Shown here in pieces: positions 26,635 through 58,216 of a DNA stretch of 64,000 nucleotides. Position 1 is the first letter of the stretch. Every line of letters starts with the position of its first letter. The notes under the pieces are model-generated. The model was not told where the DNA came from, ran no database searches, and saw only the letters and a list, made by a program, of their open reading frames with translations. A program made the position numbers and the translations under genes. Source of the DNA: Elusimicrobia bacterium RIFOXYD2_FULL_34_15 (GTDB lineage: Bacteria > Elusimicrobiota > UBA8919); the NCBI GenBank assembly GCA_001800605.1, contig MGVS01000068.1, forward strand, positions 14,028-78,027. Direction: 5' to 3'.

Positions 26635-27488
26635 CAAGAAAACATTTGACTGAAGACAACGGGCTTCTTCTGGGAGAAAGCATTACCGCCGTAGGATGGG
26701 TTAATAATACCGTTCCGGATTGTAAAGGTATTATTGAGCTTCCAATGACAGATGTTGCAGGCGCCGGCATTGCGGTTGGCGCTGCAATGGTCGGACGACG
26801 CCCGATATTTGTTATAAGATTTCAGGATTTTTTGGTTTTGAACGGTAGCCCTTTGATTTTCTTTGCGGCAAAAATAAAGGAACTGCACGGTAATTGCGCG
26901 CCTGTTTTTGTCAGGGCGATAGCGGCAGAAAATTTCGGGCCTTGCCACTCGGGAGTCCTTCATAGCATTTTTATGCATTTTCCCGGTTTCCGTGTCTGTT
27001 CACCGATGACGCCTGGAGAATATGAAAAAATCTGGCAGGATTATATGGAACATGACGACCCTATGATTGTTAGCGAACACCGCGCGAGCTATAAAAATAC
27101 GGAAGAGTTGAATGATGTCTTAGAAAAAAATGCAGATATAACACTTTACCCGGTTTCAGCAACAAGATTTGAAGCTGTAAAGGCGGCACAAATGCTGAAA
27201 AAGGAAGGAATAATATGCAACATTATAAATATTCTATGGCTGAAACCTTTCGAACTGACTAAACGTCTTATCGATCCTTTGACTGAAACAAAGAAAGGAC
27301 TGGTTATAGATCCGGGCCATGAAATAGCTGGCGCTTCCCGCTCAATCGCTTACGAACTTATGTATGCAACAAATTGTAAAGTCGGAGCGCTGGGTTTAGA
27401 AGATAAAACCAAATGTCTTTATGAACCGCTGCAAAACAAATATCCTGACGCGGAAAAAATTTACAAAGCAGTTAAAAATATGATTTAG
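26595..27488 (+). CDS. Thiamine-diphosphate-dependent dehydrogenase E1 component, beta subunit (transketolase-like pyrimidine-binding + C-terminal domain)
   Basis: 297 aa. Overlaps the alpha subunit by 40 nt. Pyrimidine-binding-domain-like N-terminus. No E2 or E3 nearby. Confidence 0.7.
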   Translation: MGQKTVAETIKEITRKHLTEDNGLLLGESITAVGWVNNTVPDCKGIIELPMTDVAGAGIAVGAAMVGRRPIFVIRFQDFLVLNGSPLIFFAAKIKELHGNCAPVFVRAIAAENFGPCHSGVLHSIFMHFPGFRVCSPMTPGEYEKIWQDYMEHDDPMIVSEHRASYKNTEELNDVLEKNADITLYPVSATRFEAVKAAQMLKKEGIICNIINILWLKPFELTKRLIDPLTETKKGLVIDPGHEIAGASRSIAYELMYATNCKVGALGLEDKTKCLYEPLQNKYPDAEKIYKAVKNMI

Positions 27489-27513
27489 ACATCCTATAAA
27501 GAAAAGGATGTCT
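27487..27513 (+). terminator. Perfect 9-bp inverted repeat (AGACATCCT-N9-AGGATGTCT) overlapping the E1-beta stop codon; terminator-like hairpin
   Basis: Seen directly in the sequence. No strong U-tract follows, so an intrinsic terminator is not certain. Confidence 0.4.
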
Positions 27514-27657
27514 GATTACACTGATTAAAAGGCAGATTACACAGATTATTTTAAAGGGTTCAGGTTCTAATCAGTGTAATCGGTGTTAAAAATCCCTGCC
27601 TGCCGGTAGGCAGGTGTGTAATCAGATATAATGTTAATTATATCAGGAGAAATAATT
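27514..27657 (+). promoter_or_regulatory. Structured leader/repeat element copy A: four GATTACAC/GTGTAATC octamers in both orientations, a GC-rich palindrome CCTGCC-N8-GGCAGG, a TATAAT box (27627-27632) and an AGGAG RBS (27645-27649)
   Basis: 60-bp core 27574-27633 is 100% identical to 39030-39089, followed by a shared ATTATATCAGGAG. Confidence 0.6.
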
Positions 27658-28203
27658 ATGAAAAGAGCTGTGATAATAACAGGACAAAATTTTCAGGATG
27701 AAGAATTCATTTACCCTTTTTACCGTTTGCAGGAAGCCGGATTCAAAGTGGATGTCGCAATTAAAGACAAAGTAATCACTAAAGGAAAATACGGCGTTCC
27801 GGCCAAACCAACCATTGACACAAAAGATTTAAAGGAATCGGATTATGATTTAGTAATATTACCCGGAGGCCATGAAGCGCCGGACAGAGTAAGACAGATT
27901 AAAGAGGTTTTGGACTTTGTGAAAGCCATGTATGATAAAGGTAAAGTAATTTCCACGATTTGTCACGGCCCCTGGATCCTTATCTCTGCCGGTATCGTAA
28001 AAGGTAAAAAAATATCCGGTTATATAGGGATTAAAGACGATATTATTAACGCAGGTGCAGAATACGTCGACGCTCCTGTGGTTGTTGACGGTAACATAAT
28101 CTCTTCTCCTCACTACAAATATAACGGCGACTGGATGAGAGAAACCCTAAAAATAATAGAAGCGGATCCTTCAACTTCGCTCAGGACAAGTAAACGCGGA
28201 TAA
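27658..28203 (+). CDS. DJ-1/PfpI-family protein (class I glutamine amidotransferase-like)
   Basis: Start moved from the track's 27631 to ATG 27658, which lies 8 nt after AGGAG. The track start sits inside the repeat element. The catalytic-elbow region ICHGPWILISAGI is typical of DJ-1/PfpI. Confidence 0.75.
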   Translation: MKRAVIITGQNFQDEEFIYPFYRLQEAGFKVDVAIKDKVITKGKYGVPAKPTIDTKDLKESDYDLVILPGGHEAPDRVRQIKEVLDFVKAMYDKGKVISTICHGPWILISAGIVKGKKISGYIGIKDDIINAGAEYVDAPVVVDGNIISSPHYKYNGDWMRETLKIIEADPSTSLRTSKRG

Positions 28204-28276
28204 AGAAAGCTGATTTTACGCAGATGACACAAAATGTCATCCTGAGCCATAGGCTAAGGATCCAGGAAGTAATTTT

Positions 28277-30004
28277 ATGAATAAAAATGATAAAATATAT
28301 GTTGCGGGACATAAAGGACTAGTGGGTTCTGCGATACTCCGCCGGCTTGAAAAAGACCGTTATAAAAATATCATAACAAAGGAACATGCCGAGCTGGATT
28401 TATGCGATCAGTATCAAGTTAAAGCATTTTTTGAAAGGGAAAAACCTAAATATGTGTTCCTTGCAGCTGCTAAAGTCGGCGGTGTTTTTGCAAACAATAC
28501 TTACCGCGCCGATTATATCTATGAAAACTTGATAATACAAAGTAACGTTATTCATCATTCTTTTTTAAATGAAGTTAGTAAACTTCTCTTTTTAAATTCT
28601 GCTGATGCTTATCCAAAAGACCATCAAAAATGCGCAAAAGAGGAAGATCTGCTAAAAGGCCCTTTGGAACCTACGTGCGAACCTTTCGCCACAGCTAAAA
28701 TTGCGGGAATTAAAATGTGTGAATCTTATAATCGCCAGTACGGGACCGATTTTATAGTAGTTACCGCGCCTAATGTTTACGGACCACACCAGCATTATGA
28801 CATACTCAATGCGCAGGTATTGCCTTCTCTGGTTAAGAAATTTCACGAAGCTAAAATTGCGGGTTCTAAAGAGGTTGTCATCTGGGGATCCGGCGGTGCT
28901 GTAAGAGATTTTTTATTTGTAGATGACCTTGCTGATGCGTGCATCTTTTTGATGAATAATTCTTCCGGCTGTGACTCTTTCAATACGGGAACCGGAAAAG
29001 GCCATACAATCCTTGAGTTAGCTGAAACAATTAAAAAGGTTATAGGATTCAAAGGTAGAATTTTATTTGATAAAACAAAACCAGAAGGCGTCAGCAAAAA
29101 ACTTCTGGACATATCGAAAATACGAAGTTTAGGCTGGAAATCAAAAACTAAACTGGAAGACGGAGTGAAAAACAGTTATAGTTCTTTTTTAGACGAGTTA
29201 GACAAGAAAGAAGTTAGGGTTTCAAAGATATTGAATATAAAAATCTGTGATAAAGATATCATTGCTTTAAACAGACTGAAATCGATTAAAAAAACTATTT
29301 CTGTAAGCGTTCAGCCGGATAATTATAAAAATAAGATTGTTGTAAAACCATGGGGGCATGAATTTTTAGTTTTTGAAAACGAAAAAACAGCGGTTTGGCT
29401 TTTATACATAGAAAAAGGCAACTCAACATCCATGCACTGCCACCCGCAAAAAAAGACATCGCTTATCATTTTATCCGGAAAAGCGATGAGCAATACCTTC
29501 CAATCTAAAAATTATTTGAAGGGCGGGGATACTATTATCATTGAGAAAGGAGTATTTCATTCCACTAAAGTTTTATCCGATAACGGACTTTTCATGTTAG
29601 AGATAGAATCTCCGCCGATTAAGACCGACCTTGTAAGGCTGGAGGACAGATATGGGCGGGAAACTTCCGGCTATGAAGGCATTGCAGAAATGGAAACTAA
29701 AAATCTTACTGAATACGGATATTTCAGTTTTGATGAATCTGATTGTTATAAAAAATATATTAAAGAAACCGAAAGATTTATTGTAAAATTTGAGGTTTTT
29801 CCCGATAATAAAGAATTTCAAAAACATTTTGAAACCAATGAAAACGGACTCTATACATCATGCAGAGGCAAGCTTATGGATAAAGAAAATAATATTGTAC
29901 TAAACCTTGCTGATACTCAAAAAACTTACAGTCTTTCAAATGTAAAAAAAATTCACATTTCCGAAAAAACTGTTCTATTAAAAACCATAACAAAGGATAA
30001 ATAA
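28277..30004 (+). CDS. Fusion protein: N-terminal GDP-L-fucose synthase-like domain (~310 aa) + C-terminal cupin domain
   Basis: 575 aa. N-terminal KIYVAGHKGLVGSAILRRL...EPTCEPFATAKIAGIKMCESYNRQYGTDF is strongly collinear with Fcl. Where E. coli Fcl has SSCIYPK (epimerase Cys) this protein has SADAYPK. The C-terminal PWGHEF...SMHCHPQKKTS matches the cupin G(x)5HxH...E metal-binding motifs. Confidence 0.8.
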   Translation: MNKNDKIYVAGHKGLVGSAILRRLEKDRYKNIITKEHAELDLCDQYQVKAFFEREKPKYVFLAAAKVGGVFANNTYRADYIYENLIIQSNVIHHSFLNEVSKLLFLNSADAYPKDHQKCAKEEDLLKGPLEPTCEPFATAKIAGIKMCESYNRQYGTDFIVVTAPNVYGPHQHYDILNAQVLPSLVKKFHEAKIAGSKEVVIWGSGGAVRDFLFVDDLADACIFLMNNSSGCDSFNTGTGKGHTILELAETIKKVIGFKGRILFDKTKPEGVSKKLLDISKIRSLGWKSKTKLEDGVKNSYSSFLDELDKKEVRVSKILNIKICDKDIIALNRLKSIKKTISVSVQPDNYKNKIVVKPWGHEFLVFENEKTAVWLLYIEKGNSTSMHCHPQKKTSLIILSGKAMSNTFQSKNYLKGGDTIIIEKGVFHSTKVLSDNGLFMLEIESPPIKTDLVRLEDRYGRETSGYEGIAEMETKNLTEYGYFSFDESDCYKKYIKETERFIVKFEVFPDNKEFQKHFETNENGLYTSCRGKLMDKENNIVLNLADTQKTYSLSNVKKIHISEKTVLLKTITKDK

Positions 30005-42572: not shown

Positions 42573-44063
42573 ATGATTGCTCTTGTAAATATTACCTCAA
42601 AATTTCGCGGAGTAGAAGATACTACCAGACCTCCGTCTGGACTGTTGTATTTGGGCAACTCTCTTAAAAAAGCGGGATATGAAGTGACAGTTTTTCACAT
42701 TGTTGAAAATGAAATTGATGAGACAGTTGAAAAAATTATTAATTTAAAACCTTCATATGTAGGGTTTTCCGTCTTTACCGGATACCCTTGTTATACTTCG
42801 TCAATAATGTCCAAAAAAATAAAAGAACGCAACAGCAATATTCCGGTCATCTGGGGCGGTATACATCCTTCTCTCACTCCTGAAGAATGCTTAAAAGAAA
42901 AATTCATAGATTTAGTGGTTATTGGTGAAGGCGAAGAAACAATTCTTGAGTTAAGTCAAGAACTTTTAGGAAATCATAATTATGAAAATATTAAAGGAAT
43001 AGGTTATAAAAAAGCAGGGGCAATTAAAATAAATCCGCGAAGAGAACTTATTGCAAACTTAGACAATTATAAAATGGACTGGTCATTAGTTAATATAAAT
43101 AATTATATTCGACCGGGCAGCGATAACGAAAAAACACTATGCTTTATTACATCCAGAGGATGTCCGTTCAATTGCGGATTTTGTTATAACGAAAAATTCA
43201 ATAACCGCAAATGCCGCGCTCACTCAATTGATTTTGTCATTAATGAAGTAAAAGCGTTAAAAGAAAAGACTGGGATAACAAGAATATCCTTTGACGATGA
43301 TCATTTTATGGTTAATATTAAAAGAGGTTTTTCAATTTTATCGGAGTTAAAAAAAATAGGAATTACATGCGATTGGATGGAATTTCACCTGGATTTCGTG
43401 ACTAATGAAAACATGGAAAAATTAGCAGATTTGGGCGTAAAAAGGATTTTCTTCGGTTGGGAATCAGGGAATAACAGGATACTGAAGTTAATCAATAAAC
43501 ACTTTACAAAAGAAATTATATTAGATAAATGTAAAATTCTGGCTAAATTCCCGAACATAAACTATGATGCATCCGCTATTATAGGTTTTCCTACGGAAAC
43601 TTGGAAAGATGTAGCAATTACGATAGATACGGCATTGGAAATGGCAGAAATTCTACCGAATGTCAATTTTAATTTAGGAACTTATATGCCTTACCCCGGT
43701 ACTCCTCTTTATAATTTAACAATTAAAGAAGGATTCAACCCGCCGACAAATGTCGAGGGATGGAAAGAATTTGATATGCTTGAAGGTAAAGTCAATATTG
43801 ACTGGCTGCCATGGGCAAATATTAAAACAAAAAAAATATTTTCTTTAATAGATGCTTACGCAAAATGCTTGGATGTTCCAAAAAAAATGTCTGAAAAGAA
43901 AAGTATGTTTAAAAGAACCGGAAAATTATTTCTTTACTTTTTAGCAAAGTGGCGTTTAAAAAGAAAGTTCTTTCTTTTTCCTTTTGAAATATATTTTTAT
44001 GCGTTATGGATGAAAAAAAGCATTGCCAGAAATATAAAAAAATTTAAAACAAGTAATAACTAA
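42573..44063 (+). CDS. B12-binding domain radical SAM enzyme
   Basis: 496 aa. VIWGGIHPS and VIGEGEET B12-domain motifs. CPFNCGFC radical-SAM motif. Confidence 0.85.
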   Translation: MIALVNITSKFRGVEDTTRPPSGLLYLGNSLKKAGYEVTVFHIVENEIDETVEKIINLKPSYVGFSVFTGYPCYTSSIMSKKIKERNSNIPVIWGGIHPSLTPEECLKEKFIDLVVIGEGEETILELSQELLGNHNYENIKGIGYKKAGAIKINPRRELIANLDNYKMDWSLVNINNYIRPGSDNEKTLCFITSRGCPFNCGFCYNEKFNNRKCRAHSIDFVINEVKALKEKTGITRISFDDDHFMVNIKRGFSILSELKKIGITCDWMEFHLDFVTNENMEKLADLGVKRIFFGWESGNNRILKLINKHFTKEIILDKCKILAKFPNINYDASAIIGFPTETWKDVAITIDTALEMAEILPNVNFNLGTYMPYPGTPLYNLTIKEGFNPPTNVEGWKEFDMLEGKVNIDWLPWANIKTKKIFSLIDAYAKCLDVPKKMSEKKSMFKRTGKLFLYFLAKWRLKRKFFLFPFEIYFYALWMKKSIARNIKKFKTSNN

Positions 44064-44069
44064 AAATAT

Positions 44070-45176
44070 ATGCATATTACACTCATTATTTCTTCTTTAT
44101 CACCGGGCGGTGCAGAGAAAGTCATGGCTGCTATGGCTAACTACTGGGCAGGAAATAATCAGGATATAACATTAATAACTTTCGATTCAAGAAACAGTGA
44201 CTCTTACATTTTTAATGACAGGATAAAACGGCATGCTTTGGAACTATTAACAGACTCAAAAAATATTTTGGAAAGCCTTGCTAATAATTATAAACGCATT
44301 AAACGCCTGCGTAGCATACTTGTTGATTCCAAACCGGATATAATTATAAGTTTCATTGATAAAACAAATATTCTTGCTATTTTATCCAACATAGGGCTAA
44401 AATATCCGTTAATTATATGTGAAAGAGTAAACCCGAGAAAATACCGCATAGGCCGGTTCTGGCGCTTACTACAAAAAATGTTATATCCGCTATCCGATGC
44501 TTTAGTTGTACAAACAGAGGCTACAAAATTATGGTTTAAACAGAAATTGAAATTCCCGGAAGAAAAAACTTATGTGATACCAAATCCTGTTATTATTTCT
44601 TCTCAAAATAGTAAAAATATTATAAAAGAAAAATTAAACATCATTTCTATGGGAAGATTAGTCCGGCAAAAAGGATTTGATATTCTTTTAGACTCTTTCT
44701 CTAAAATAGCTGAAAAATATCCTGACTGGACGCTAACGATAATAGGTAAAGGTGAAGAAGAGAATAATTTAAAATCTCAGGCAAAATATCTTGGGATTGA
44801 AAAACAGGTCATTTTTACAGGATTTATAAAAAATCCTTTCGAATACCTTCAAAATGCGGATTTATTTGTTATGCCGTCCCGTTTTGAAGGTTTTCCAAAT
44901 GCACTTATAGAAGCGATGTCTTATGGTTTAGCAGCAATCAGTTTTAATTGCCCAAGCGGCCCGTCTGATATAATCAGAAATGGTACGGACGGTATTTTAG
45001 TAAATTGTGAAGATACTGACGGATTGACTGCCGCAATGGATGATTTAATGTCAAATAAAGAAAAAAGAGGACAGTTTTCCAAACGGGCAAGAGAAGTAAG
45101 CGAGCGGTTCAAACTGGAAAAAATAATAGGAATGTGGAATAATTTATTAGAAGAAGTTATCCGGAGAAAAAAATGA
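44070..45176 (+). CDS. Glycosyltransferase family 4 (GT-B)
   Basis: 368 aa. GGAEKV N-terminus. EGFPNALIEAMSYGLAAIS motif. Confidence 0.8.
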   Translation: MHITLIISSLSPGGAEKVMAAMANYWAGNNQDITLITFDSRNSDSYIFNDRIKRHALELLTDSKNILESLANNYKRIKRLRSILVDSKPDIIISFIDKTNILAILSNIGLKYPLIICERVNPRKYRIGRFWRLLQKMLYPLSDALVVQTEATKLWFKQKLKFPEEKTYVIPNPVIISSQNSKNIIKEKLNIISMGRLVRQKGFDILLDSFSKIAEKYPDWTLTIIGKGEEENNLKSQAKYLGIEKQVIFTGFIKNPFEYLQNADLFVMPSRFEGFPNALIEAMSYGLAAISFNCPSGPSDIIRNGTDGILVNCEDTDGLTAAMDDLMSNKEKRGQFSKRAREVSERFKLEKIIGMWNNLLEEVIRRKK

Positions 45177-45973
45177 ATGAAAAAAGTAATGAGCGGTTCA
45201 AATTTGGTGACAACTGGAAACATTTTTTAAAACATCTAGACAATGAGCGGATATCGTCAGCTGAAAAATCACTTCGTGAAATGTTGGAAACAGATAATTT
45301 AAAAAAGAAAAATTTCATTGATGTCGGTTCCGGCAGTGGGTTATTTTCGCTTGCTGCCATGAATTTAGGCGCTGAAAGCGTTTTTTCATTTGACTATGAT
45401 ACACAAAGTGTCGCATGCACAAAAGAAACCAAGCAAAGGTATTTACCAAATGCTAAAAACTGGAATATTGAACAGGGTTCTGTATTAGACCAGGATTATC
45501 TAAAAAAGCTCGGACAGTTTGATATAGTTTATTCGTGGGGTGTTTTACATCATACAGGTGAGATGTGGAAAGCGCTAGAAAATGTCATTCCTCTAGTGAA
45601 AAACGGCGGTAAATTATTTATAGCTATATATAATGATCAGGGTGGAACTAGTCAGCGATGGAAAAAAGTTAAAATTCTTTACAATAAATTACCCAAAGTT
45701 TTAAAATTCTTATATGTAGTTTTAATAATGATTCCTTTCGAATTTAAATACGCTTTGGCACGCTTATTAAAAGGCAAATCTCCGTTTCCTCCGAAAGATG
45801 AACGGGGAATGAAAAAATATTACGATTGGGTAGACTGGATCGGCGGGTATCCGTTTGAAGTTGCAAAACCAGAAGAAATTTTTCAGTTTTACAAGAATAA
45901 AGGATTCCTGCTAGAGAAACTAAAAACTTGCGGCGGCGGTTTGGGAAATAATGAGTTCGTATTTATAAGATGA
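45173..45973 (+). CDS. Class I SAM-dependent methyltransferase
   Basis: 266 aa. Motif I DVGSGSGLFSLAAMNLGAESVFSFDYD. Confidence 0.8.
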   Translation: MNEKSNERFKFGDNWKHFLKHLDNERISSAEKSLREMLETDNLKKKNFIDVGSGSGLFSLAAMNLGAESVFSFDYDTQSVACTKETKQRYLPNAKNWNIEQGSVLDQDYLKKLGQFDIVYSWGVLHHTGEMWKALENVIPLVKNGGKLFIAIYNDQGGTSQRWKKVKILYNKLPKVLKFLYVVLIMIPFEFKYALARLLKGKSPFPPKDERGMKKYYDWVDWIGGYPFEVAKPEEIFQFYKNKGFLLEKLKTCGGGLGNNEFVFIR

Positions 45974-47538
45974 ATAAAAACTTGTCAGAAAAAAACTTTC
46001 ATATAGTTATAATATCACTGTATAGTTACGGTGCTTTTGGTAGCAGGATTTTAAAAGATATTTTGAAAAACAACGGTTATACGGTATCATGCATATATTT
46101 CAAGAAAGACAAAACTAACTCCATGGGATTACCGTCAGAACACGAAAACACTTTATTATTAGAACTTATTAAGAAACTAAAACCCAACCTTATCGGTATT
46201 AGTACTCGTTCCACATTTTTTCCTGTTGCAAAAGATATTACAAAAAAAATGAAAGATATCACTAATTCACCTATAATTTGGGGAGGGGCTCATCCGACAA
46301 TCTGTTCGGAAGAATCAATTCAATTCGCGGATATGATTTGTATCGGCGAAGGTGAAAAAACAATACTTGAATTAGCAAATAAACTTTATAAACACGAGGA
46401 TATTTCCAAAATTAAAGGTCTCTGGGTTAAAAATAACAATTCTATTATAAAAAACGAACCCAACTTTTTATTTGAGGATTTAAATACATTGCCTTTTCCT
46501 GATTTTGACAATAAAGATACTTACGCGATTGAAAACAACTGTATTATTGAACACGATCCGTTATATAACGACGATTTGACATATTATAATTTTATGAGCG
46601 GAAGGGGATGTCCTTTCCATTGTTACTTTTGCAGTAACAGCATATTAAAAAAAATCTTTGATGACAAAGGACATTTTATAAGACAAAGAACCGTCGAAAA
46701 TGTCATTGAAGAATTAAAAATTGCAAAAAATCGCTTTAAAAAACTTAAAGTTGTTTCAAGTAATGACGAGGTTTTTACATTAAACAAAGAATGGCTGAAA
46801 GAGTTCTGCGAAAAATATAAAAAAGAAATTGGTTTACCCTTTCACTGCGATATACATCCGAATTACGTAAATGAAAACATAATAGAATATTTAAAATACG
46901 CCGGCTTGAAAACAATTACAATGGGAATACAGAGTGGCTCCGAAAGAATACGTACGGATTTATACGGCAGAAAAACACCTGATGCGATACTGGAAAAAAA
47001 TGCTCAAATTCTCAAAAAATTTAAAATATTTCCTTCTTTTGACCTGATATTTGATAATCCCCTTGAAACTGAGAATGACATAAAAACAACTTATGAATTC
47101 ATGTTAAAATTGCCAAGACCTTATAGAATAAATATGTATTCAATGCAACATCATCCAAAAACAAAACTAACGGAAATGCTTTTAAATGAAAAGCTAATAA
47201 CCTCAAACGATGTAGATGGTATTTCTACTAAGGGATTTGATCAATGGCATGTAAATTTTGATTATAAAAAAAGTAAACCGGAATTAATACATTACTACAA
47301 ACTTTTTGAATTATTATCCAGTTTTATTGTATTAAGTAAAAATAATCCGGGAAAGGTAATTTTTGTTTTTCCAAAGTGGTTTATCCGTTTTATTGAAAAT
47401 AGTAAATTTTTCAAAAGATACCCTCGCTCAACCGATTGGATAGCATTAATGCCTAAGATAACTTTTGGTTTGGGTTTATTAATTCAGGGAGAATATAAAA
47501 GATTATTCAAAAGTGCTAAGAGTTTTTTAGCGAATTAA
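45970..47538 (+). CDS. B12-binding domain radical SAM enzyme
   Basis: 522 aa. IIWGGAHPT and CIGEGEKT B12-domain motifs. CPFHCYFC radical-SAM motif. Confidence 0.85.
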   Translation: MNKNLSEKNFHIVIISLYSYGAFGSRILKDILKNNGYTVSCIYFKKDKTNSMGLPSEHENTLLLELIKKLKPNLIGISTRSTFFPVAKDITKKMKDITNSPIIWGGAHPTICSEESIQFADMICIGEGEKTILELANKLYKHEDISKIKGLWVKNNNSIIKNEPNFLFEDLNTLPFPDFDNKDTYAIENNCIIEHDPLYNDDLTYYNFMSGRGCPFHCYFCSNSILKKIFDDKGHFIRQRTVENVIEELKIAKNRFKKLKVVSSNDEVFTLNKEWLKEFCEKYKKEIGLPFHCDIHPNYVNENIIEYLKYAGLKTITMGIQSGSERIRTDLYGRKTPDAILEKNAQILKKFKIFPSFDLIFDNPLETENDIKTTYEFMLKLPRPYRINMYSMQHHPKTKLTEMLLNEKLITSNDVDGISTKGFDQWHVNFDYKKSKPELIHYYKLFELLSSFIVLSKNNPGKVIFVFPKWFIRFIENSKFFKRYPRSTDWIALMPKITFGLGLLIQGEYKRLFKSAKSFLAN

Positions 47539-49427: not shown

Positions 49428-49796
49428 TAATATAGAATCTAATAAACTTCATGTTTTTGGAAATTCGGAAATTGGAGCTCCAAATGATAGTCATTAAATA
49501 GAATACCTTATACGCTTTGGAGCGGAAATCCCTGCCTACAGGCAGTGTAGTTGTTCAGTATTTTGGTAGCAGTTTTTAGGTATTTCATCAAGTGTAGTCA
49601 TTGCGAGGAATAAAATGACGAAGCAATCTCATGAAATATTTGTCCGACTAAGGAAAGATTGCCGCATCCGATTTTATCGGCTTCGCAATGACAACTTAAT
49701 TTGGTAAACAGATGTTACCGAAATTGTGAAGTACTACACGGCAGGCAGGCGCGAGGCGATCCCGATACTTTATCGGGACGCGAAGGCGGACAACAT
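49428..49796 (+). promoter_or_regulatory. 369-bp highly structured intergenic region (candidate leader RNA/regulatory region) upstream of the GT2 gene
   Basis: Contains a degenerate copy of the CCTGCC..GGCAG palindrome (49531-49545), a long-range inverted repeat GTCATTGCGAgG / CTTCGCAATGAC (~49599/49681), the hairpin CCGATtttATCGG, and a GC-rich segment with the hairpin ATCCCGATacttTATCGGGAC (49759-49779). Confidence 0.45.
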
Positions 49797-50498
49797 ATGA
49801 TTAAAAAACTTTCAATAATTATTCCCTGTTACAATGAAGAAGATACAATACTGCAAGTCGTAGATAAAATAAAACATGTACCGTTAAATTTAGAAAAAGA
49901 AATAATTATCGTATGCGACGGTTCAAGCGACGGCACGAAAGAACTTCTGCAAAAGCATTTTCCCTTGCAGGATAAAAATATTAAAACGGTATTTCACGAA
50001 AAGAATATGGGAAAAGGCAAGGCTGTTAAAACAGGGATTGAGGTTGCAACAGGGGATTACCTGATAGTACAGGATGCCGACCTTGAGTTAAACCCGGACG
50101 ATTACATTGCTTTACTTCAACCTATACAGAGCGGTAACGCTACCGTTGTTTTCGGTTCCCGTAAAGCAAAAGGTTTTAAAAAACTTTATTTTCATTCCGT
50201 TTTCGCCAATTTTGTCGTAACTTTCCTGACAAATTTTTTATACGGTTCAAAACTTACCGACCAGGCCTGCGGTTATAAAATATTACCGGTTTCACTGTTT
50301 AAATCTCTGGATTTAGAATCATTCGGATTTGAATTTTGTTCCGAACTAACCGCAAAGATTCTAAGAACCAAAAAATATATAATAAGCGAAGTTGACGTGG
50401 ATTATTTTCCGAGAACATACAAACAAGGCAAGAAGATAAGCTGGAAAGACGGTTTTATTGCCATTTGGACTTTGCTTAAATATAAAATAACCAAATGA
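49797..50498 (+). CDS. GT2 family glycosyltransferase (DPM1/GtrB-like)
   Basis: Start moved from the track's 49701 to ATG 49797 ([16 protein letters not shown]). VCDGSSDGT and QDADLE (DxD) motifs. Confidence 0.8.
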
Positions 50499-50614
50499 AG
50501 TTCCATCCCGATAACAATCGGGATAATATTTTTTTGCTTCTGGATTCTACGGAGCGTCCGCCACGGCGGATGCCCGCCAAGGCTTCGGACTTGACTGGCT
50601 GCATTATAAATTTT
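50496..50614 (+). repeat. ~120-bp GC-rich direct repeat, copy 1 (contains the hairpin ATCCCGATaacaATCGGGAT); left boundary of the islet
   Basis: About 85% identical over ~120 bp to 55248-55365. Both copies end immediately at a start codon. Confidence 0.7.
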
Positions 50615-52195
50615 ATGAAAAAAAATAATTCAAATGGTGGAAATATTGGTTTTGAAGAGAAACTGTGGAAAACAGCGGATAAACTGCGTAATAATATGGA
50701 TGCTGCTGAGTATAAGCATATAGTATTAGGTCTGATTTTTCTTAAGTATATCTCTGACGCATTTGAAGAACGTTATAAAATACTTGAAAAAGAAGTTACT
50801 GATCCAAAAAGTAATCAATACATAAAAGAACCAAAAGTCCTACATGAAATAATGGAAGATAGAGATGAATATAAATCTGTTAATGTGTTTTATGTTCCGG
50901 AGAAATCTCGTTGGTCACGTCTACAGAAAAATGCAAAACAACCCACAATAGGTAAAATCATAGATGATGCAATGGATGTCTTAGAAAAGGAAAATTCAAC
51001 CCTTAAAGGTGTTCTTCCTAAAAATTATGCAGACCCTAAACTTGATAAACAACGTCTTGGTGAACTGATAGACCTTATAGGTACAATTAGTTTAGGAGAT
51101 TACGAAAATCGCAGTAAGGATATTTTAGGTAGAGTTTACGAATATTTTTTAGGACAATTTGCAGATTCGGAAGGTAAACGAGGCGGACAATTTTACACTC
51201 CTCGAAGTATAGTGCAATTACTTGTTGAAATGATGGAGCCATATAAAGGCCGTATTTTTGATCCCTGCTGCGGTTCCGGCGGTATGTTTGTGCAAAGCGA
51301 AAAATTTGTAAAAATACACGGTGGTAAATTAGGCGATATTGCTATTAACGGACAGGAATCCAATCAAACCACCTGGCGTCTCTGCAAAATGAACTTAGCA
51401 ATCCGCGGCATAGATGCAAATATAGCCTGGAATAACGAAGGTAGTTTCTTAAAAGATGAACATAAAGATTTAAAAGCAGATTTTATATTAGCCAATCCAC
51501 CGTTTAATGACAGCGACTGGAAGGGCGAGCAATTAAGAGATGATGTAAGATGGAAATACGGCGTCCCGCCGACAGGCAATGCTAATTTCGCTTGGGTTCA
51601 GCATTTTATTTATCATCTATCGCCAAAAGGCATAGCAGGTTTTGTATTAGCAAACGGTTCTATGTCTTCTAACCAGTCAAACGAAGGTGAAATAAGAAAA
51701 AATATAATTGAGGCAGACATAGTGGATTGTATGGTTTCTTTACCAACACAACTTTTCTACAATGTAATGATACCTGCTTGTCTGTGGTTTGTTTCCCGTG
51801 ATAAGAAAAATCACAAATTCAAAGACAGAAGAGGCAAAGTTCTTTTCATCGATGCTAGGAAAATGGGGCTAATGATTGACCGCAGACACAGGGAACTAAC
51901 TGAAAAAGAAATAAATAAAATTGCTGATATTTATCACGCTTGGCGTGGAGAAGGCGGCAGGTATAAAGATGAAAAGGGCTTCTGTAAATCGACAACTCTT
52001 GAAGAAATAAAATCACAGGGCTATATTTTGACTCCCGGAAGATATGTAGGCACAGAAGAAGTGGAAGAAGACGATGAAAAGTTTAATGAAAAAATGAAAC
52101 GACTTACCAAAGAACTTTCAGAACAATTCGAAAAATCCATCGAACTTGAAAAAGAAATAAAAAAAAATCTGAAGGGTTTGGGCTATGAAATATGA
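50615..52195 (+). CDS. hsdM: Type I restriction-modification system N6-adenine DNA methyltransferase subunit HsdM (orphan: no HsdS or HsdR present)
   Basis: Start moved from the track's 50495 to ATG 50615; upstream of it the frame merely reads through the repeat. HsdM_N domain ([34 protein letters not shown]). Motif [12 protein letters not shown]. Catalytic NPPF (ILANPPFN). Confidence 0.88.
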
Positions 52196-52971
52196 AATTT
52201 ACAATTATTTGTGATGAAAGTGGTACTGAGAATAGGCATTTGGTTATAGGGGCACTTGTTATTCCAAGAATTAACCATACTTTACTTATTGAGGAGATGA
52301 AAACCTTAAAGAAAGAGTTACATCTGCGATGGGAAGGTGAAATCAAATGGGGTAAAGTGAGCAAAAAATATATTGAAAAATATAAGAAAATCACCGAGTG
52401 GTTTTTCAATCACCTTAAGTCAAACCATTTAAAATTCCGTGCTCATGTGATTGATACCGCAAAGAAAGAATACCGCGAATATGGGGAAGGCGACAAAGAG
52501 AATTCTTTTTATAAGGTTTTCTTTCATCTCCTTATGCAATGCATTAAACGGTTGGCTATAGAAGAAGAAGGTAGCAATGTGCTGATACTATTAGATGATA
52601 AAAAGAATAGATATCCTTTTAGATTACCACTTTTAAAGAAAACTTTAAATAAAGCGTTAAAAAGGGATTTGAAATTACACGAAATAGTGGCTAATGTAGA
52701 ACCAAGACATTCCAGCGGTAACCGAGTAGAAGGACTTATACAAATAGTAGATGTTTTGATTGGAGCTATTGGATATGTTAGGAATGAATCTTGTAAATTA
52801 CCAAATGCGTCACCTGCAAAAGTAGAAATGATTGGCTTTTTGGAAAATCTGATTGGCACAAAGTTTGAATACGATACTAATGCAGGGGCACTATTTAATA
52901 TTTGGACATTTGATGTTACTGTGCCGTTAGAAAAGAAAAAGTATTATAAAAAAAATCGCCCTATCACCTAG
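52192..52971 (+). CDS. DUF3800-family protein
   Basis: 259 aa. N-terminal [13 protein letters not shown] is characteristic of DUF3800. ATGA overlap with the hsdM stop suggests translational coupling. Confidence 0.65.
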
Positions 52972-53138
52972 CTCCCAAAAGAGCACCCCTTTCGGGGAAC
53001 TACGCCATAAGGCGTAGGTTTCAGTAATAGTAGCGACTTATAAGTTTAGTATACATAAAAAAAAATAAAAAGCAATAAAATAAAAAAACAAAAATATTTT
53101 TTTAATTGTAGGAACGGTTCACGCAATAGTCCAATAGT

Positions 53139-53687
53139 AATATTACAGGAAAGGACAGAATAGAAATATTCAATCCCGGTCAATTTCCTTATGAATATGA
53201 GCCGGAAGATTTTTTTAAAGGCAATCTTCCGAGCGTGCCGCGCAATCCGTTGATTGCAGAAGTGTTTTATCTTTCCGAAGATATTGAAAAATGGGGCTCC
53301 GGCTTGCGCCGTATAAGTCAGGAATGTAAAACAGCAGGAGTCAAAGTTATTTTTAAGAAGATTAAAAGCGGATTTGTTGTTACTTTTTACCGTCCTAATA
53401 TTACCGGCATACCGGCAAAAGAAGAGGAAGGCAAGAATGTAAAAGACACTGTAAAAGACACTGTAAAAGACACTGTAAAAATGCTCAGTGAAAAAGAAAA
53501 TAAGATTTTGGAAATATTGAATAAAGAACCGAAAACTACTGCCAGAATGCTTGCAGAAGTTTTGAAAATCAATTTAAGAAATACCAAAAAATACCTATCC
53601 ATGTTACAAGAACAAGGGTTGCTTAAACGCATCGGCTCCGATAAAAGCGGCCGCTGGGAAGTGATTTTAAGAGGTATGGAAAAATGA
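53139..53687 (+). pseudogene. 5'-truncated remnant of an AlbA_2/HATPase_c_4 ('RecG C-terminal-like ATP-binding transcriptional regulator') gene
   Basis: The open frame begins right after a stop at 53136-53138. It reads ...DRIEIFNPGQFPYEYEPEDFFKGNLPSVPRNPLIAEV, which is the ERIEIxNPG core of HATPase_c_4. The N-terminal AlbA_2 domain is absent. The track's Met start at 53235 is internal. Confidence 0.6.
53439..53480 (+). repeat. 12-bp tandem repeat (GTAAAAGACACT x3.5) encoding KDTVKDTVKDTVK
   Basis: Seen directly in the sequence inside the truncated gene. Confidence 0.8.
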
Positions 53688-54142
53688 AAGACAATCAGAC
53701 AATAAAAATTTATATTTTTGAGATCTGGCTTGAGGAAAATGAGGGAAAAGTCTCCCGCCGGATTCAGATTGCCGGGAAGGATGCTCTTTACAATTTCGCC
53801 AAAATTATAACCAAATCCTTTGGTTTTTATTTTGACCATTGTTTCGGATTTTATGATAATTTTAATCGTCTTAACAATTCAACGAAAGCATTTGAATTAT
53901 TTGTTGATGTCGGTGAAACACCTTTATCAGAAATCACCAAGGGCGTTAAAAAGACAAAAGTCAGTCAGGCATTTGAAAATATCGGAGAGAAAATGCTTTT
54001 CTTTTTTGATTATGGTGATGAATGGCGGTTTACGGTAAAACTAATAGATATAAAAGATGTTTCAAAAGATATAAAAATAAAACCGGCAGTATTACAAAAA
54101 ATTGGCAAATCTCCTATGCAGTATCCGTCTTGTGATGAATGA
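53684..54142 (+). CDS. Plasmid pRiA4b ORF-3-like (PRiA4_ORF3 family) protein
   Basis: 152 aa. IKIYIFEIWL...FFFDYGDEWRFTVKLIDI matches the family's Y.FDFGD.W.H.I signature. Confidence 0.55.
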   Translation: MKDNQTIKIYIFEIWLEENEGKVSRRIQIAGKDALYNFAKIITKSFGFYFDHCFGFYDNFNRLNNSTKAFELFVDVGETPLSEITKGVKKTKVSQAFENIGEKMLFFFDYGDEWRFTVKLIDIKDVSKDIKIKPAVLQKIGKSPMQYPSCDE

Positions 54143-54247: not shown

Positions 54248-54925
54248 ATGAAACCAAGCTATATTGGGCATCGGAAGAGGCTCAAGGAAAAATACAAAAA
54301 AAACGGAATAAACGGCTGGCTTGATTACGAAGTGTTGGAACTGGCATTATCATATGCGATTCCGCGCAAAGATACAAAACCGATTGCAAAGGAACTGATT
54401 AGCAGGTTTAAGACCATTAATGGAGTGTTGGATGCAGATAGAAAATATTTAGAAGAAGTTAAAGGAATTTCTGAACATACCGCATTTTTTCTAAAATTGT
54501 TGAAAGATGTAGCAATTCTATATATGGAGAAAGGTATTCATAATAAAGATTTGCTTTCGTCACCGCAGCTTGTTTATGATTATTTGAAAACTTCTCTAAG
54601 AGGTGCATCTGACGAAGAATTTAAAATACTTTTTTTGGATAATAGGAACAAGCTGATTGGTATTGAGACCTTTGAAAGCGGTACTGTGAACCACGCTGTT
54701 GTATATCCAAGAAAGGTTGTTGAGAGAGCACTATATAATCATGCGGTTGGCGTTATTATTGCACATAATCATCCGTCAGGAGCGTTACAACCGTCACAGG
54801 ATGATATAGATGTAACTAAAACCATTAAGAATGCTCTCAGAACAGTTGAAATAACATTATTGGATCATATCATTATTGGTCATAACGATTATTACAGCTT
54901 TAAAAATAAAAACGAAACTCTTTAG
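54248..54925 (+). CDS. radC: RadC-like JAB/MPN-domain protein
   Basis: 225 aa. JAMM motif HNHPSGALQPSQDDIDVTK. N-terminal helix-hairpin-helix-like region. Confidence 0.85.
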   Translation: MKPSYIGHRKRLKEKYKKNGINGWLDYEVLELALSYAIPRKDTKPIAKELISRFKTINGVLDADRKYLEEVKGISEHTAFFLKLLKDVAILYMEKGIHNKDLLSSPQLVYDYLKTSLRGASDEEFKILFLDNRNKLIGIETFESGTVNHAVVYPRKVVERALYNHAVGVIIAHNHPSGALQPSQDDIDVTKTIKNALRTVEITLLDHIIIGHNDYYSFKNKNETL

Positions 54926-55247: not shown

Positions 55248-55365
55248 AATGAAGCTCCATCCCGATAACAATCGGGATTATAACATCTACCTTAAGGATT
55301 CTAGGAGCGTCCGCTGCGACGGATGCCCGCCAAGGTCCCGGCCTTGACTGGATGCAGGATACATT
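55248..55365 (+). repeat. ~120-bp GC-rich direct repeat, copy 2 (hairpin ATCCCGATaacaATCGGGAT at 55258-55279); right boundary of the islet, directly upstream of the radical SAM gene
   Basis: Aligns with 50496-50614 with compensatory differences in internal hairpins. Confidence 0.7.
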
Positions 55366-56814
55366 ATGTTAAATGTTTTACTAATCAGTGCTCCGTATGT
55401 TGATTTATATGGACCCATTAAGTCCGCAGCCGGGAGGTATTTTCCTTTAGGCTTGGGATATATCGCATCTTTCCTTAAAAAAAACGGGTACTCAGTATCT
55501 CTTTACGAACCTGAAGCTCAAAAATTAAACATAGAAGAAATAAGTAAAATCTTCGCCGAAAAGAAACCTGACATAGTCGGTATCGGCAGTGCAACACCCA
55601 ATTTTTACAACGCCGTTGAACTGGCAAAACTAGCTAAAAAAACCTGCAATTGCAAGGTAATACTCGGAGGTATTCACGCGAGCGCTATTCCAGAATTCAT
55701 CATTGAAAAATATCATACTTGCTTTGACTATTTAGTTGTCGGTGAAGGTGAATACACAATGCTGGAACTCTTAAAATGCCTGGAAAATAAACAAATGCCT
55801 GATAGTGTTCCCGGCCTATGTTTTTGGCATGAAAATAAGGTTAATTTAACTCCATGCCGTCCATTCATCATGGATTTAGATAGTTTGCCTTATCCTGCCA
55901 GGGATATGATACCGCAAGAACTGTTTTATCCAAATTTACACAACGCAAGATACAGCAAGTGTTTTACTATACTTACCAGCAGAGGATGTCCTTTTAATTG
56001 TTCTTTTTGTGCTTCCGGATTAACTTTAGGTAAAAAATACAGGGTTAACAGTGCAGAATATGTGCTTGGTGAAATGTCTATGTTAAAAGAACAGTACGGG
56101 GCCAGGCAACTACTAATTACAGATGATACTTTCACTATCAATAAAAATAGATTACTTGAAATATGCGAAGGTATGATAAAAAAGAAACTGAACCTGGAAT
56201 GGTTTTGTTTTTCTCAGATAACTGCTGTAGATGAAGAAACCTTAAAACTAATGAAACGTGCGGGTTGCTATAATATAGGTTTCGGTATAGAATCGGCATC
56301 TCCGAGAATTTTGAAAATAATGGGCAAGCCGTATTCTCCGCAACAATGCAAAACTGTTATTGACGCCGCTAACCGTTTGGGAATGAAAACGCAGGCGTTT
56401 TTTGTTTTCGGCGAACCGGAAGAAACCATAGAAGAAATTAACAGTACGGTTAATTTTGCTATCGATATTAATCCGACATTATCATTTTTCAATATGCTGG
56501 TTCCGTATCCCGGCACAAAAGATTTCCAATATTTTTTCAAAGATATACCGCTGGATCAGATTGACTGGAAAAACTTTGTTGCTATAGGAACTAAATCCGT
56601 TATCAATAAAAATAGCAATTTAGATTTGGAAAAAATAGTCTTTAACGCCAATTTAAAATTTTATATGAGACCGCGCCAATTATTACATATCATATCAAAA
56701 ATTAAAACTTTTCATGAACTCTATTCGTATATTAAAGGCGGCTTAGGACTGCTCGCACAAATGATAACTTGGAAAACAGAAACCCGGCAAACAGATGAAA
56801 ATACTCTTAATTAA
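55366..56814 (+). CDS. B12-binding domain radical SAM enzyme
   Basis: 482 aa. ILGGIHAS and VVGEGEYT B12-domain motifs. CPFNCSFC radical-SAM motif. Confidence 0.85.
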   Translation: MLNVLLISAPYVDLYGPIKSAAGRYFPLGLGYIASFLKKNGYSVSLYEPEAQKLNIEEISKIFAEKKPDIVGIGSATPNFYNAVELAKLAKKTCNCKVILGGIHASAIPEFIIEKYHTCFDYLVVGEGEYTMLELLKCLENKQMPDSVPGLCFWHENKVNLTPCRPFIMDLDSLPYPARDMIPQELFYPNLHNARYSKCFTILTSRGCPFNCSFCASGLTLGKKYRVNSAEYVLGEMSMLKEQYGARQLLITDDTFTINKNRLLEICEGMIKKKLNLEWFCFSQITAVDEETLKLMKRAGCYNIGFGIESASPRILKIMGKPYSPQQCKTVIDAANRLGMKTQAFFVFGEPEETIEEINSTVNFAIDINPTLSFFNMLVPYPGTKDFQYFFKDIPLDQIDWKNFVAIGTKSVINKNSNLDLEKIVFNANLKFYMRPRQLLHIISKIKTFHELYSYIKGGLGLLAQMITWKTETRQTDENTLN

Positions 56815-58216
56815 TCCGCCAAACACAAACATGATTTTAACGCATTTACCTTCATATATCGATGAAGAATCCGGTATTTTTCCGCCATTGGGATTGATGT
56901 ATCTTGCCTCGTCTTTATCAAATAAGACCGGCATAAATGTTGAAATTCTGGATGCACTTTTAAATAAAATAAGCCTAAATAATATAGCAAATAAAATTAC
57001 AAATTATTTGCCGGACTTAGTAGGAATAACCGCGACTTCTTTCACGCTTATAGATGCTTTACTTATTGCCAAAACAGTAAAAGAAGTCAATCAAAATATA
57101 CATGTCACTATGGGCGGACCTCATGTAAGTATTTATCCTAATGAGACACTTTTGCAGAAAGATGTTGATTCTGTAGTCATCGGAGAGGGGGAAAAGACAT
57201 TCTCCGATTTAGTCAATAATTTAAACGAAGGAAAAAATCTTGAAGGAATTCCGGGATTAGCATTTAAAAATAAACAGGGACAAATAATAAATAACGGATA
57301 CAGGGATTTTATTGAAAATTTAGATGAGATTCCTTTACCCGACCGGAATCTTACTCCGTATAAAGAATATTATTCCATACTCGGAGAAAAACATCCTATT
57401 ACTACAATCATCACAAGCCGAGGCTGTCCGTTTAGATGCTCTTTTTGCTATCATTTCCTGGGTAAAAAATGGAGAACACGCTCTGCTAAAAACGTAATTG
57501 AAGAATTAGAGTCTTGCGTAAATATAGGAATTAGAGAATTCTGGTTTTTTGATGAAACATTTACAATTGATAAAAAAAGAGTCCTGGACATATGTGACGG
57601 TATAATCTCAAAAAAATTAAATATAAAATGGAATATCCGTAGCAGGGTAGATACAATCGATAAAAACATGATGGAGAGATTAAAACTGGCCGGCTGCGAA
57701 AAAATCTCATTTGGCATAGAATCGGCATTATCCAAGACTTTAAAAGTATTGCAGAAAGAAATAAATCCTGATAAATCCAAAGAAATTGTTTTACTGGCGA
57801 AATCATTAGGATTCGAAACTTCCACAGATTTTATGATAGGTTCCCCGGGAGAAACACGTGAAGACATTTTAGAAACAATATCTTTTTCATTAAAATTAGA
57901 CCCGGATTATGCCACATTTTCCATAACCACGCCTTTTCCTTGTACACAACTTTATAATTCATTGCTTGAAAATAAATTTTTTGACCGTGATTATTGGAAA
58001 GATTTCAGCATTTCACCAAGTAAAGATTTTATACCTAACCTTTGTAATGAATATTTATCCAGGGAAGAATTAGCTCATTTGCAGAATTATGCTTATAAAA
58101 AATTCTATCTGCGCCCGAAATATATTTTAAAGAAAATGTTAAAGCTAAAATCACCGATTGATTTTCTCAGAAAAGCAAAGGTTTCGCTAAGAATGCTTGC
58201 AAGCCGGGAAAAATGA
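56795..58216 (+). CDS. B12-binding domain radical SAM enzyme
   Basis: 473 aa. MGGPHVS and VIGEGEKT B12-domain motifs. CPFRCSFC radical-SAM motif. 20-nt overlap with the upstream paralog. Confidence 0.85.
   Translation: MKILLINPPNTNMILTHLPSYIDEESGIFPPLGLMYLASSLSNKTGINVEILDALLNKISLNNIANKITNYLPDLVGITATSFTLIDALLIAKTVKEVNQNIHVTMGGPHVSIYPNETLLQKDVDSVVIGEGEKTFSDLVNNLNEGKNLEGIPGLAFKNKQGQIINNGYRDFIENLDEIPLPDRNLTPYKEYYSILGEKHPITTIITSRGCPFRCSFCYHFLGKKWRTRSAKNVIEELESCVNIGIREFWFFDETFTIDKKRVLDICDGIISKKLNIKWNIRSRVDTIDKNMMERLKLAGCEKISFGIESALSKTLKVLQKEINPDKSKEIVLLAKSLGFETSTDFMIGSPGETREDILETISFSLKLDPDYATFSITTPFPCTQLYNSLLENKFFDRDYWKDFSISPSKDFIPNLCNEYLSREELAHLQNYAYKKFYLRPKYILKKMLKLKSPIDFLRKAKVSLRMLASREK

Follow-up and report, generated by a model that had tools for sequence, protein, structure and literature searches.

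A 64,000-nucleotide stretch (64 kb; hereafter the window) of the metagenome-assembled genome (MAG) of Elusimicrobia bacterium RIFOXYD2_FULL_34_15 carries an hsdM gene, encoding the methyltransferase (M) subunit of a type I restriction-modification (R-M) system, followed directly by a gene for a DUF3800 protein. An initial annotation of this DNA regarded the two genes as a fixed pair and as a candidate non-canonical defence module. The features at the center of the present analysis are the following, with positions numbered from the first letter of the window:

50615-52195, plus strand: hsdM (Pfam; PADLOC MTase_I)
52192-52971, plus strand: DUF3800 gene (PF12686), its start overlapping the hsdM stop
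53039 to 52948, minus strand: structured small RNA (sRNA) with three hairpins (covariation, covariance models, weak RF02968 match)
53048-53075, minus strand: putative sRNA promoter, with -10 TATACT at 53053 to 53048 and a degenerate -35 TTGCTT at about 53075 to 53070
52972-53143, no strand assigned: intergenic stretch homologous to the spacer between DUF3800 and hsdS in a related locus, L090 (blastn)

The hsdM gene is intact and encodes a 526-amino-acid (aa) protein (OGS45004.1) that matches the Pfam families N6_Mtase (2.3e-112) and HsdM_N (5.5e-27) and has MTase_I as its top PADLOC model (7e-222). The HsdM motif lies at 51257-51283 and the catalytic NPPF at 51494-51505, and with HsdM_N, N6_Mtase and NPPF all present the protein belongs to the M subunits of type I R-M systems. 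A longer open reading frame (ORF) of 566 aa starting at 50495 has been rejected as the true start, as homology with L090 begins at the 50615 ATG; the N-terminal extension of this longer ORF falls inside a 127-nt direct repeat. The DUF3800 protein (259 aa, OGS44959.1) scores 41.9 bits against PF12686, for which the cut-off is 21. The two genes share an ATGA at 52192-52195, in which the hsdM TGA stop overlaps the DUF3800 ATG.

The full-length HsdM and its overlap with DUF3800 are thus as first described, and so is the lack of the other type I subunits. No HsdS or HsdR match was obtained in the 64-kb window by tblastn at E ≤ 1e-6 with five HsdS and two HsdR seeds, and seed hidden Markov models run against the six-frame translation of the window found no remnants of either at E ≤ 10. 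The locus therefore has neither of the two subunits that would make it a complete type I R-M system. The Pfam scan of the 259-aa protein gave DUF3800 alone, with no Methylase_S.

Nearest relatives and the loss of hsdS

The nearest relative of the locus is found in another Elusimicrobia MAG (loci L090, L091 and L092). Its HsdM is 85% identical to that of the window by BLAST (88% over 510 aligned codons), and its DUF3800 protein is 93% identical. The gene order is regulator, hsdM, ATGA, DUF3800, a 170-bp spacer, hsdS and a TIR gene, after which the contig ends. The L090 hsdS starts at 12489 and encodes a 372-aa protein with Methylase_S. In blastn, window positions 50614-53143 align to L090 10000-12490 at 83.6%; the homology begins at the hsdM ATG and ends at 53143, the counterpart of the hsdS start codon in L090. 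Since the homology stops at this codon and a truncated regulator gene lies beyond it, hsdS and the part downstream have been deleted or replaced in the window lineage, and the alignment places the apparent breakpoint at about 53143. A further locus, L004, had seemed from its gene table to offer a distinct downstream context; it has been set aside, as blastn shows it to be identical to the window.

The same comparison contradicts the proposal that DUF3800 replaces HsdS and HsdR in a non-canonical module, as the paired locus L090 carries hsdS right after the pair and the window homology ends there. The pair is probably what remains of an ordinary type I R-M operon that has lost hsdS and in which a cassette of DUF3800 and sRNA was embedded.

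Both genes are under purifying selection in comparison with L090, with dN/dS (omega) values of 0.06 for hsdM and 0.07 for DUF3800; the values are measured across both lineages (window and L090) and not since the loss of hsdS. Synonymous divergence between window 50615-52971 and L090 10001-12318 is uneven, dS being 1.24 for hsdM and 0.50 for DUF3800. This 2.5-fold gap suggests separate histories for the two genes, or recombination between them.

The window HsdM is typical of M subunits, sharing ~75-100% identity with the 120 relatives listed out of 8000 found at E ≤ 1e-100. The genomic context has been inspected for five of these relatives. All five have hsdS nearby, and hsdR as well where the contig reaches far enough. 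Four of the five loci L085-L089 have the order hsdM, a 459-aa gene, hsdS, two unannotated genes (262 and 307 aa), Fic and hsdR, while a single 118-aa gene separates hsdS from hsdR in L088. In L093 the order is hsdM, YhcG, a 230-aa gene, hsdS, DUF6978, DUF1828/1829 and hsdR. In L157 hsdM is followed by a second DUF3800 gene, DUF3800, a 54-aa ORF, hsdS and two more genes before the contig ends, with hsdR unseen. The two DUF3800 genes of L157 (5042-6752; the same locus as L094, with a second contig in L095) belong to different subfamilies and form a tandem inside the hsdM-hsdS interval. This slot is thus a variable cargo space in type I operons.

A second HsdM, 87% identical to the first, is annotated in the same MAG (OGS43585.1; P0082, L085). 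This protein is encoded in a complete hsdM-hsdS-hsdR locus at all five displayed places (21 contigs read). As the protein comes from the same MAG and its loci are complete, a complete type I system most probably exists in another part of the genome. The window hsdM could then be a functional orphan methylase that works in trans with the paralogous HsdS, and perhaps HsdR, with DUF3800 and the sRNA as an addiction cassette stabilising the islet in which the genes lie. The intact hsdM with its omega of 0.06 would fit such a role, as would the anatomy of the cassette, which resembles that of toxin-antitoxin (TA) systems. Leaving aside residues 51-150 and the last 26 aa, the two HsdM paralogues are 86-98% identical in each 50-aa block, and the HsdS proteins of L090 and L085 can be aligned over their full length at 33% identity. 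On the other hand, residues 51-100 of the two HsdM proteins are just 62% identical, and the omega value does not refer to the period since hsdS was lost. We consider this alternative unlikely.

Fold, genomic contexts and partners of DUF3800

An AlphaFold2 model of the DUF3800 protein, computed from a 28-sequence alignment, has a predicted local distance difference test score (pLDDT) of 91.8 and a predicted TM-score (pTM) of 0.90. In the model the protein adopts an RNase H-like fold of the RNase H2/H3 type, with carboxylates on strand 1, on later strands and on a helix, so that the structure prediction called for at the outset does return a nuclease-like fold. Residues that never or hardly ever vary are D8 and E9, where strand 1 ends, D135, E170, and Q184 and D187 on a helix; ≥90% of the 28 sequences share D8, E9, Q184 and D187. 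RNase H2 enzymes typically have such a 'DE' on strand 1. The score above threshold, the N-terminal DE and the C-terminal QxxD together place the protein in PF12686. The DE...QxxD signature has been described for DUF3800 (PMC7736814) and is reproduced by the window protein, whose predicted fold and motifs agree with PMC7736814 and PMC10910872. The model thus points to an RNase H2-like protein and a putative nuclease.

The contexts of the subfamily to which the window DUF3800 belongs have been compared at 22 distinct places, with homologues 45-93% identical to the window protein. Type I R-M genes adjoin DUF3800 at four of them, namely the window, L090, L157 and L006, and hsdS is present in the three other than the window. 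In L006, DUF3800 lies upstream of an island with a full R-M system, SIR2 and DUF87. Elsewhere it stands alone in an element with an integrase and TrwC (L009), between Mrr and GmrSD (L012), or among non-defence genes (L159). The supposedly fixed association with HsdM is therefore sporadic, an outcome that the initial annotation had itself listed as refuting its reading. In the wider family, type I genes occur in the fetched flanks (≤10 kb) of 17 of the 69 species-representative loci and of nine of the 63 metagenome loci, far above a chance expectation that we roughly estimate at ~1%.

The DUF3800 protein also matches the PADLOC model PDC-M04A (3.6e-36), which makes the defence role suspected in the initial annotation plausible. 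PADLOC derived its PDC candidates from genes that sit inside BREX, DISARM or type I R-M loci (Payne et al. 2024, bioRxiv 10.1101/2024.01.29.577857), and the type I proximity of the DUF3800 family fits this 'guilt-by-embedding' (Payne et al. 2024). In 39 of the 63 DUF3800 loci of the genome scan (L024-L076; all in the tail of 22-32% identity), a ~170-aa gene is translationally coupled downstream of DUF3800. A PADLOC scan of these downstream partners identifies at least 37 of the 39 as matches to the PDC-M04B models, and none of the 39 has a Pfam family. The PDC-M04B-type protein has conserved F..H, R..R..W and T residues. PDC-M04B was found neither in the downstream genes nor in the six-frame translation of the window, nor in the close-subfamily loci tested. 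A literature search for 'PDC-M04' returned nothing.

The scattered contexts could also mean that DUF3800 and the sRNA form a selfish element of the mobile or addiction type that plays no part in defence and merely lands in permissive mobile operons. DUF3800 does occur in integrative elements and in non-defence surroundings, and distant homologues are present on viral contigs (≤32% identity; none of the window subfamily by identity). A Legionella DUF3800 gene behaves as an essential antitoxin-type gene in a variable region, and the lower dS of DUF3800 compared with the adjacent hsdM suggests a separate history. Against this stand the type I genes near 17 of the 69 representative loci, the further neighbours Mrr, GmrSD, SIR2 and TIR, and the ties of DUF3800 to retron and CRISPR systems in the literature. 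Moreover, the cassette itself is flanked by neither a transposase nor terminal repeats. We hold a purely selfish element to be quite improbable.

The convergent RNA

A conserved block directly follows the DUF3800 stop codon in every locus of the subfamily with downstream sequence, whatever gene comes next. It encodes a convergent RNA on the minus strand, and this sRNA, rather than the methylase, is the constant partner of the DUF3800 subfamily. In the window the predicted RNA is ~92 nt long (53039 to 52948) and overlaps the end of the DUF3800 ORF. It folds into a 16-bp stem (P1) that closes a junction with the hairpins H3, H2 and H1 and is followed by a U8 tail, with a minimum free energy of -41.2 kcal/mol.

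The same architecture is found on the minus strand in 17 of 17 non-redundant loci. The shared plan comprises a singly bulged P1 of 15-17 bp, a junction in which GAA is invariant, a hairpin of 7 bp topped by CC-UUAU-GG, one or two more hairpins that are mostly capped by GNRA loops, and a U-run after P1. Covariation has been counted on a MAFFT alignment of the 17 sequences over 32 pairs. Standard pairs make up 95.3% of the cells, as against 35-49% when the partners are slid, and double-sided changes occur in 24 of the 32 pairs; none of 500 shuffles reaches the observed values. The final ~8 codons of DUF3800, with the stop, lie antisense to the 3' strand of P1 and the U-run, an overlap that may be the reason for the conserved Lys-rich C-terminal tail of the protein.

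As the element begins at the stop codon and its stems would also form on the plus strand, it might instead be the 3' untranslated region or terminator of the DUF3800 mRNA and no separate RNA. However, the G.U pairs of the minus strand become A.C mismatches on the plus strand, where such mismatches are many (one P1 pair is U.G in nine of the 17 sequences on the minus strand), and the GNRA loops and the U-run after P1 exist on the minus strand only. The promoters face the minus strand as well. In 15 of the 17 loci a GTCAA box (TTGAC on the minus strand) keeps a constant distance of 31-34 nt to the RNA 5' end, and the window has a degenerate GCAAT box 34 nt away from that end. The -35 is TTGACT in L090 and TTGAC in nearly all other loci. 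In L090, L016 and L006 a consensus scan found promoters on the minus strand that match at 10-11 of 12 positions and stop 2-8 nt short of the RNA 5' end; the same scan did not call the sRNA promoter of the window. A simple terminator scan is blind to a terminator made of P1 and the U-run, as its 'loop' is a multi-helix junction. The G.U pairs, the GNRA loops, the U-run and the promoters assign the RNA to the minus strand, as do the Rfam matches described below. The plus-strand reading has accordingly been discarded, and an element that is only part of the mRNA is very improbable.

Two covariance models have been built, R1 without P1 and R2 rebuilt with P1 after an Rfam alignment had revealed this stem. 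In about 1.6 Mb of DUF3800 loci both match at this position and in this orientation only. R2 also recovers members on which it had not been trained (L159 with 82.6 bits, L109 with 58.7, L107 with 43, L172 with 30 and L023 with 22). L172 is a viral contig with a DUF3800 protein of 26% identity, and its RNA match is weak. No R2 match lies beside M04B-type genes, and M04B and a DUF3800-IX-like RNA never occur together in the loci examined.

At gathering thresholds no Rfam family is found in the window or in seven loci. The relation to the Rfam family DUF3800-IX (RF02968) is exposed solely by short-range E-value searches, in which the relative L103 scores 33.3 bits (E 1e-5, minus strand) and the window 15.9 bits, its extra hairpin keeping it under the gathering score of 36.8. 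Structurally, the window RNA has the closing stem, the GAA junction, the hairpin, the U tail and the adjoining DUF3800 gene of that family. It is a three-hairpin relative of DUF3800-IX. In the locus with tandem DUF3800 genes, for which the RNA scans were run on the L094 and L095 copies, a DUF3800-V RNA (RF02964, 66.6 bits; L095 2430-2529, minus strand) lies between the two genes and an IX-like RNA follows the second.

The islet, the proposed model and related systems

The genes described above are part of a 4.75-kb insert in a polysaccharide cluster with radical-SAM, glycosyltransferase and asparagine-synthase genes. The further features of this islet are:

50494-50620, no strand assigned: left direct repeat, 127 nt, from the GT2 stop through the hsdM ATG (repeat search and blastn)
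53130-53687, plus strand: 5'-truncated AlbA_2/HATPase_c_4/HTH-type regulator gene, with the C-terminal ~150-180 aa left
53684-54142, plus strand: PRiA4_ORF3-like gene, islet cargo (Pfam PF07929, 2.9e-15)
54248-54925, plus strand: RadC/JAB-domain gene, islet cargo (Pfam RadC, 3e-45; NCBIfam PRK00024, 203 bits)
55248-55373, no strand assigned: right direct repeat, ending at the ATG of the next radical-SAM gene (repeat search and blastn)

The bracketing direct repeats support the small mobile islet of the initial annotation. They are imperfect (80% identical), are present in two copies only in the window by blastn, and each reach from the TGA that ends one gene to the ATG that opens the following one; the repeat looks like the original intergenic region duplicated upon insertion. 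The islet interior has no integrase. The regulator fragment matches HATPase_c_4 at profile positions 39-89 only, plus HTH_24, and its frame is open upstream of its GTG start from about 53130. The fragment shares 31% identity with residues 331-470 of the full-length 470-aa gene upstream of hsdM in L090. A 12-nt unit (TGTAAAAGACAC) repeated in tandem ~3.5 times at 53438-53480 encodes KDTV repeats in its linker, and the full-length L090 regulator (about 9800-9870) has four EKTR repeats at the matching place.

Around the islet, the surface-polysaccharide-type cluster is unusually rich in radical-SAM genes. Four paralogous B12-binding radical-SAM genes lie among glycosyltransferase and methyltransferase genes at 42573-47538 and 55366-58216. 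Upstream of the GT2 gene, at 49500-49790, there are GC-rich short palindromic or repeat-like segments (e.g., CATTGCGAGGAATAAAATGACGAAGCAATC) in a genome that otherwise has 30-35% GC; these are possibly elements similar to repetitive extragenic palindromic (REP) sequences. A long same-strand gene array reaches a GC content of 0.39-0.44 at 26001-29000 (about 0.31 elsewhere), and no Rfam families were found in this part.

We propose that the variable hsdM-hsdS slot of a type I R-M operon held an accessory cassette consisting of DUF3800 and its cognate convergent sRNA, and that hsdS and all that followed were lost, or never transferred, in the window lineage, leaving the truncated regulator to abut at ~53143. 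HsdM is a normal M subunit, unable to recognise DNA in the absence of HsdS, and, if active at all, would borrow HsdS from the second type I system of the genome. The ATGA overlap would merely make DUF3800 ride on the transcription and translation of hsdM. The functional unit would be DUF3800 with its sRNA, a self-contained two-part module in which a Mg2+-dependent RNase H2-like nuclease is controlled or partnered by the RNA in a toxin-antitoxin or abortive-infection manner. The sRNA may bind the protein as a restraint or cofactor (type III-like), pair with the 3' end of the mRNA (type I-like), or both; that the protein recognises it is suggested by how intricate and conserved the RNA structure is, and by the many alternative RNA folds across the family. 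The nuclease would act once infection perturbs the sRNA, and M04B may play the role of the sRNA in a two-protein version.

The cassette moves between defence and mobile contexts, often in the hsdM-hsdS slot. The gene anatomy, the predicted fold, the RNA structure and its exclusive tie to this subfamily, the loss of hsdS and the annotation of a second R-M locus come out of the analysis directly; nuclease activity, RNA regulation and a defence role for DUF3800 are what we infer. That the RNA and M04B are interchangeable partners in the 3' slot of one RNase H-like effector, forming an RNA-controlled abortive-infection or TA module inside type I operons, is a tentative idea that we do not hold as probable. 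A dedicated two-gene system, in which DUF3800 supplies the recognition or cleavage function of HsdS/HsdR, is scarcely credible even though the ATGA coupling is kept in L090, both genes are intact under purifying selection and the DUF3800 fold is nuclease-like, as the sole other locus with the exact pairing has hsdS right after it, most of the DUF3800 subfamily is without any hsdM, the HsdM is a standard M subunit with hsdS near all five inspected relatives, and Methylase_S is absent from the DUF3800 protein. Such a replacement, if true, would be a new type of R-M-like system, but the evidence speaks against it.

Several points weigh against the decayed operon with its embedded cassette. The gene hsdR is unseen in the two nearest relatives, whose contigs end soon after hsdS, and for this reason the completeness of the ancestral operon is inferred. 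The intact hsdM under purifying selection may be kept for a function rather than decaying, and the second type I locus is tied to the organism only through MAG binning and the identical protein. The degenerate -35 in the window may mean that the sRNA is poorly expressed here. To our knowledge, nuclease activity, toxicity, RNA binding or phage defence has been experimentally shown for no DUF3800 protein. Finally, a Legionella transposon-sequencing study scored a DUF3800 gene as essential and listed it among essential accessory genes next to antitoxins. This fits poorly with DUF3800 as the toxic partner, and the roles could be reversed.

The embedding of accessory genes in type I R-M operons has its paradigm in PrrC of EcoprrI. 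As in that paradigm and in the embedding picture of Payne et al. (2024), a nuclease-type gene is here nested among hsd genes and co-transcribed with them. The cargo of the hsdM-hsdS slot differs from relative to relative (DUF3800, YhcG, unannotated genes). Here, however, the host operon is incomplete, without hsdS and hsdR, and the same cassette is often found outside R-M loci. PrrC is functionally linked to its R-M enzyme, whereas the link seen for DUF3800 is one of gene position. With PDC-M04, which consists of a DUF3800 protein (A) and a ~170-aa protein with no Pfam family (B), the window shares M04A and the frequent location of DUF3800 loci within type I R-M loci (as seen in the genome-contig scan seeded with the window protein), but its M04B position is occupied by the convergent sRNA.

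Type I and type III TA systems with convergent or structured RNA antitoxins include txpA/RatA, bsrG/SR4 and ToxIN. The window likewise has a convergent small RNA over the 3' end of a putative toxic nuclease gene, in a compact and horizontally spread arrangement. The likeness is one of anatomy and genomic context alone, and the window RNA is far more structured and conserved than a typical type I antisense RNA and has no ToxI-like tandem repeat.

Eleven unrelated RNA motifs have been reported beside DUF3800 genes with no functional hypothesis (Weinberg et al. 2017, PMC5737381). DUF3800-IX, one of the Rfam families of that origin, has the same orientation to the DUF3800 gene and the same plan of closing stem, GAA junction, CC-UUAU-GG hairpin and U tail. 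The window copy has an extra hairpin, and no RNA of the subfamily that was checked reaches the gathering score of the family. That the RNA overlaps the end of the ORF and has a promoter of its own was worked out here and not compared with the original description.

DUF3800 domains have also been reported in retron type VII and in Cas12a2, Cas12a3 and VI-F loci (PMC7736814, PMC10910872, PMC12669027). The window protein shares with these the Pfam family, the predicted RNase H2-like fold, the DE...QxxD motif and the association with immune systems and non-coding RNA, but it has no TPR fusion. Among the annotated genes within ~3 kb on either side of the pair there is no reverse transcriptase (RT) or cas gene; the whole window was not searched for CRISPR arrays, RT or cas. 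The locus is not a type VII retron by its neighbours, which are hsdM, the regulator fragment, PRiA4_ORF3 and RadC, and Rfam gave no match in the whole window at gathering scores; no dedicated RT search was made.

The embedding in type I operons, DUF3800 as an RNase H-fold accessory of retrons and Cas loci, and DUF3800-associated RNAs are thus known already. What goes beyond the descriptions that we have found is the IX-type RNA in its three-hairpin form, the complete anatomy of its gene and the apparent either/or of RNA and M04B. The locus is a clear worked example of operon decay and of accessory immune candidates being carried as cargo in the hsdM-hsdS slot of type I operons. It also provides a well-supported anatomy for one DUF3800-associated RNA, with its strand, its promoter in relatives, its terminator-like end, its overlap with the ORF and 32 pairs scored for covariation. 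If the RNA and M04B do prove interchangeable, the three-hairpin RNA of the window would be a new structural variant of the RNA partner. As alternative downstream partners, RNA and M04B would offer a testable handle on the DUF3800 nucleases in PADLOC candidates, retrons and Cas12a2/a3 loci.

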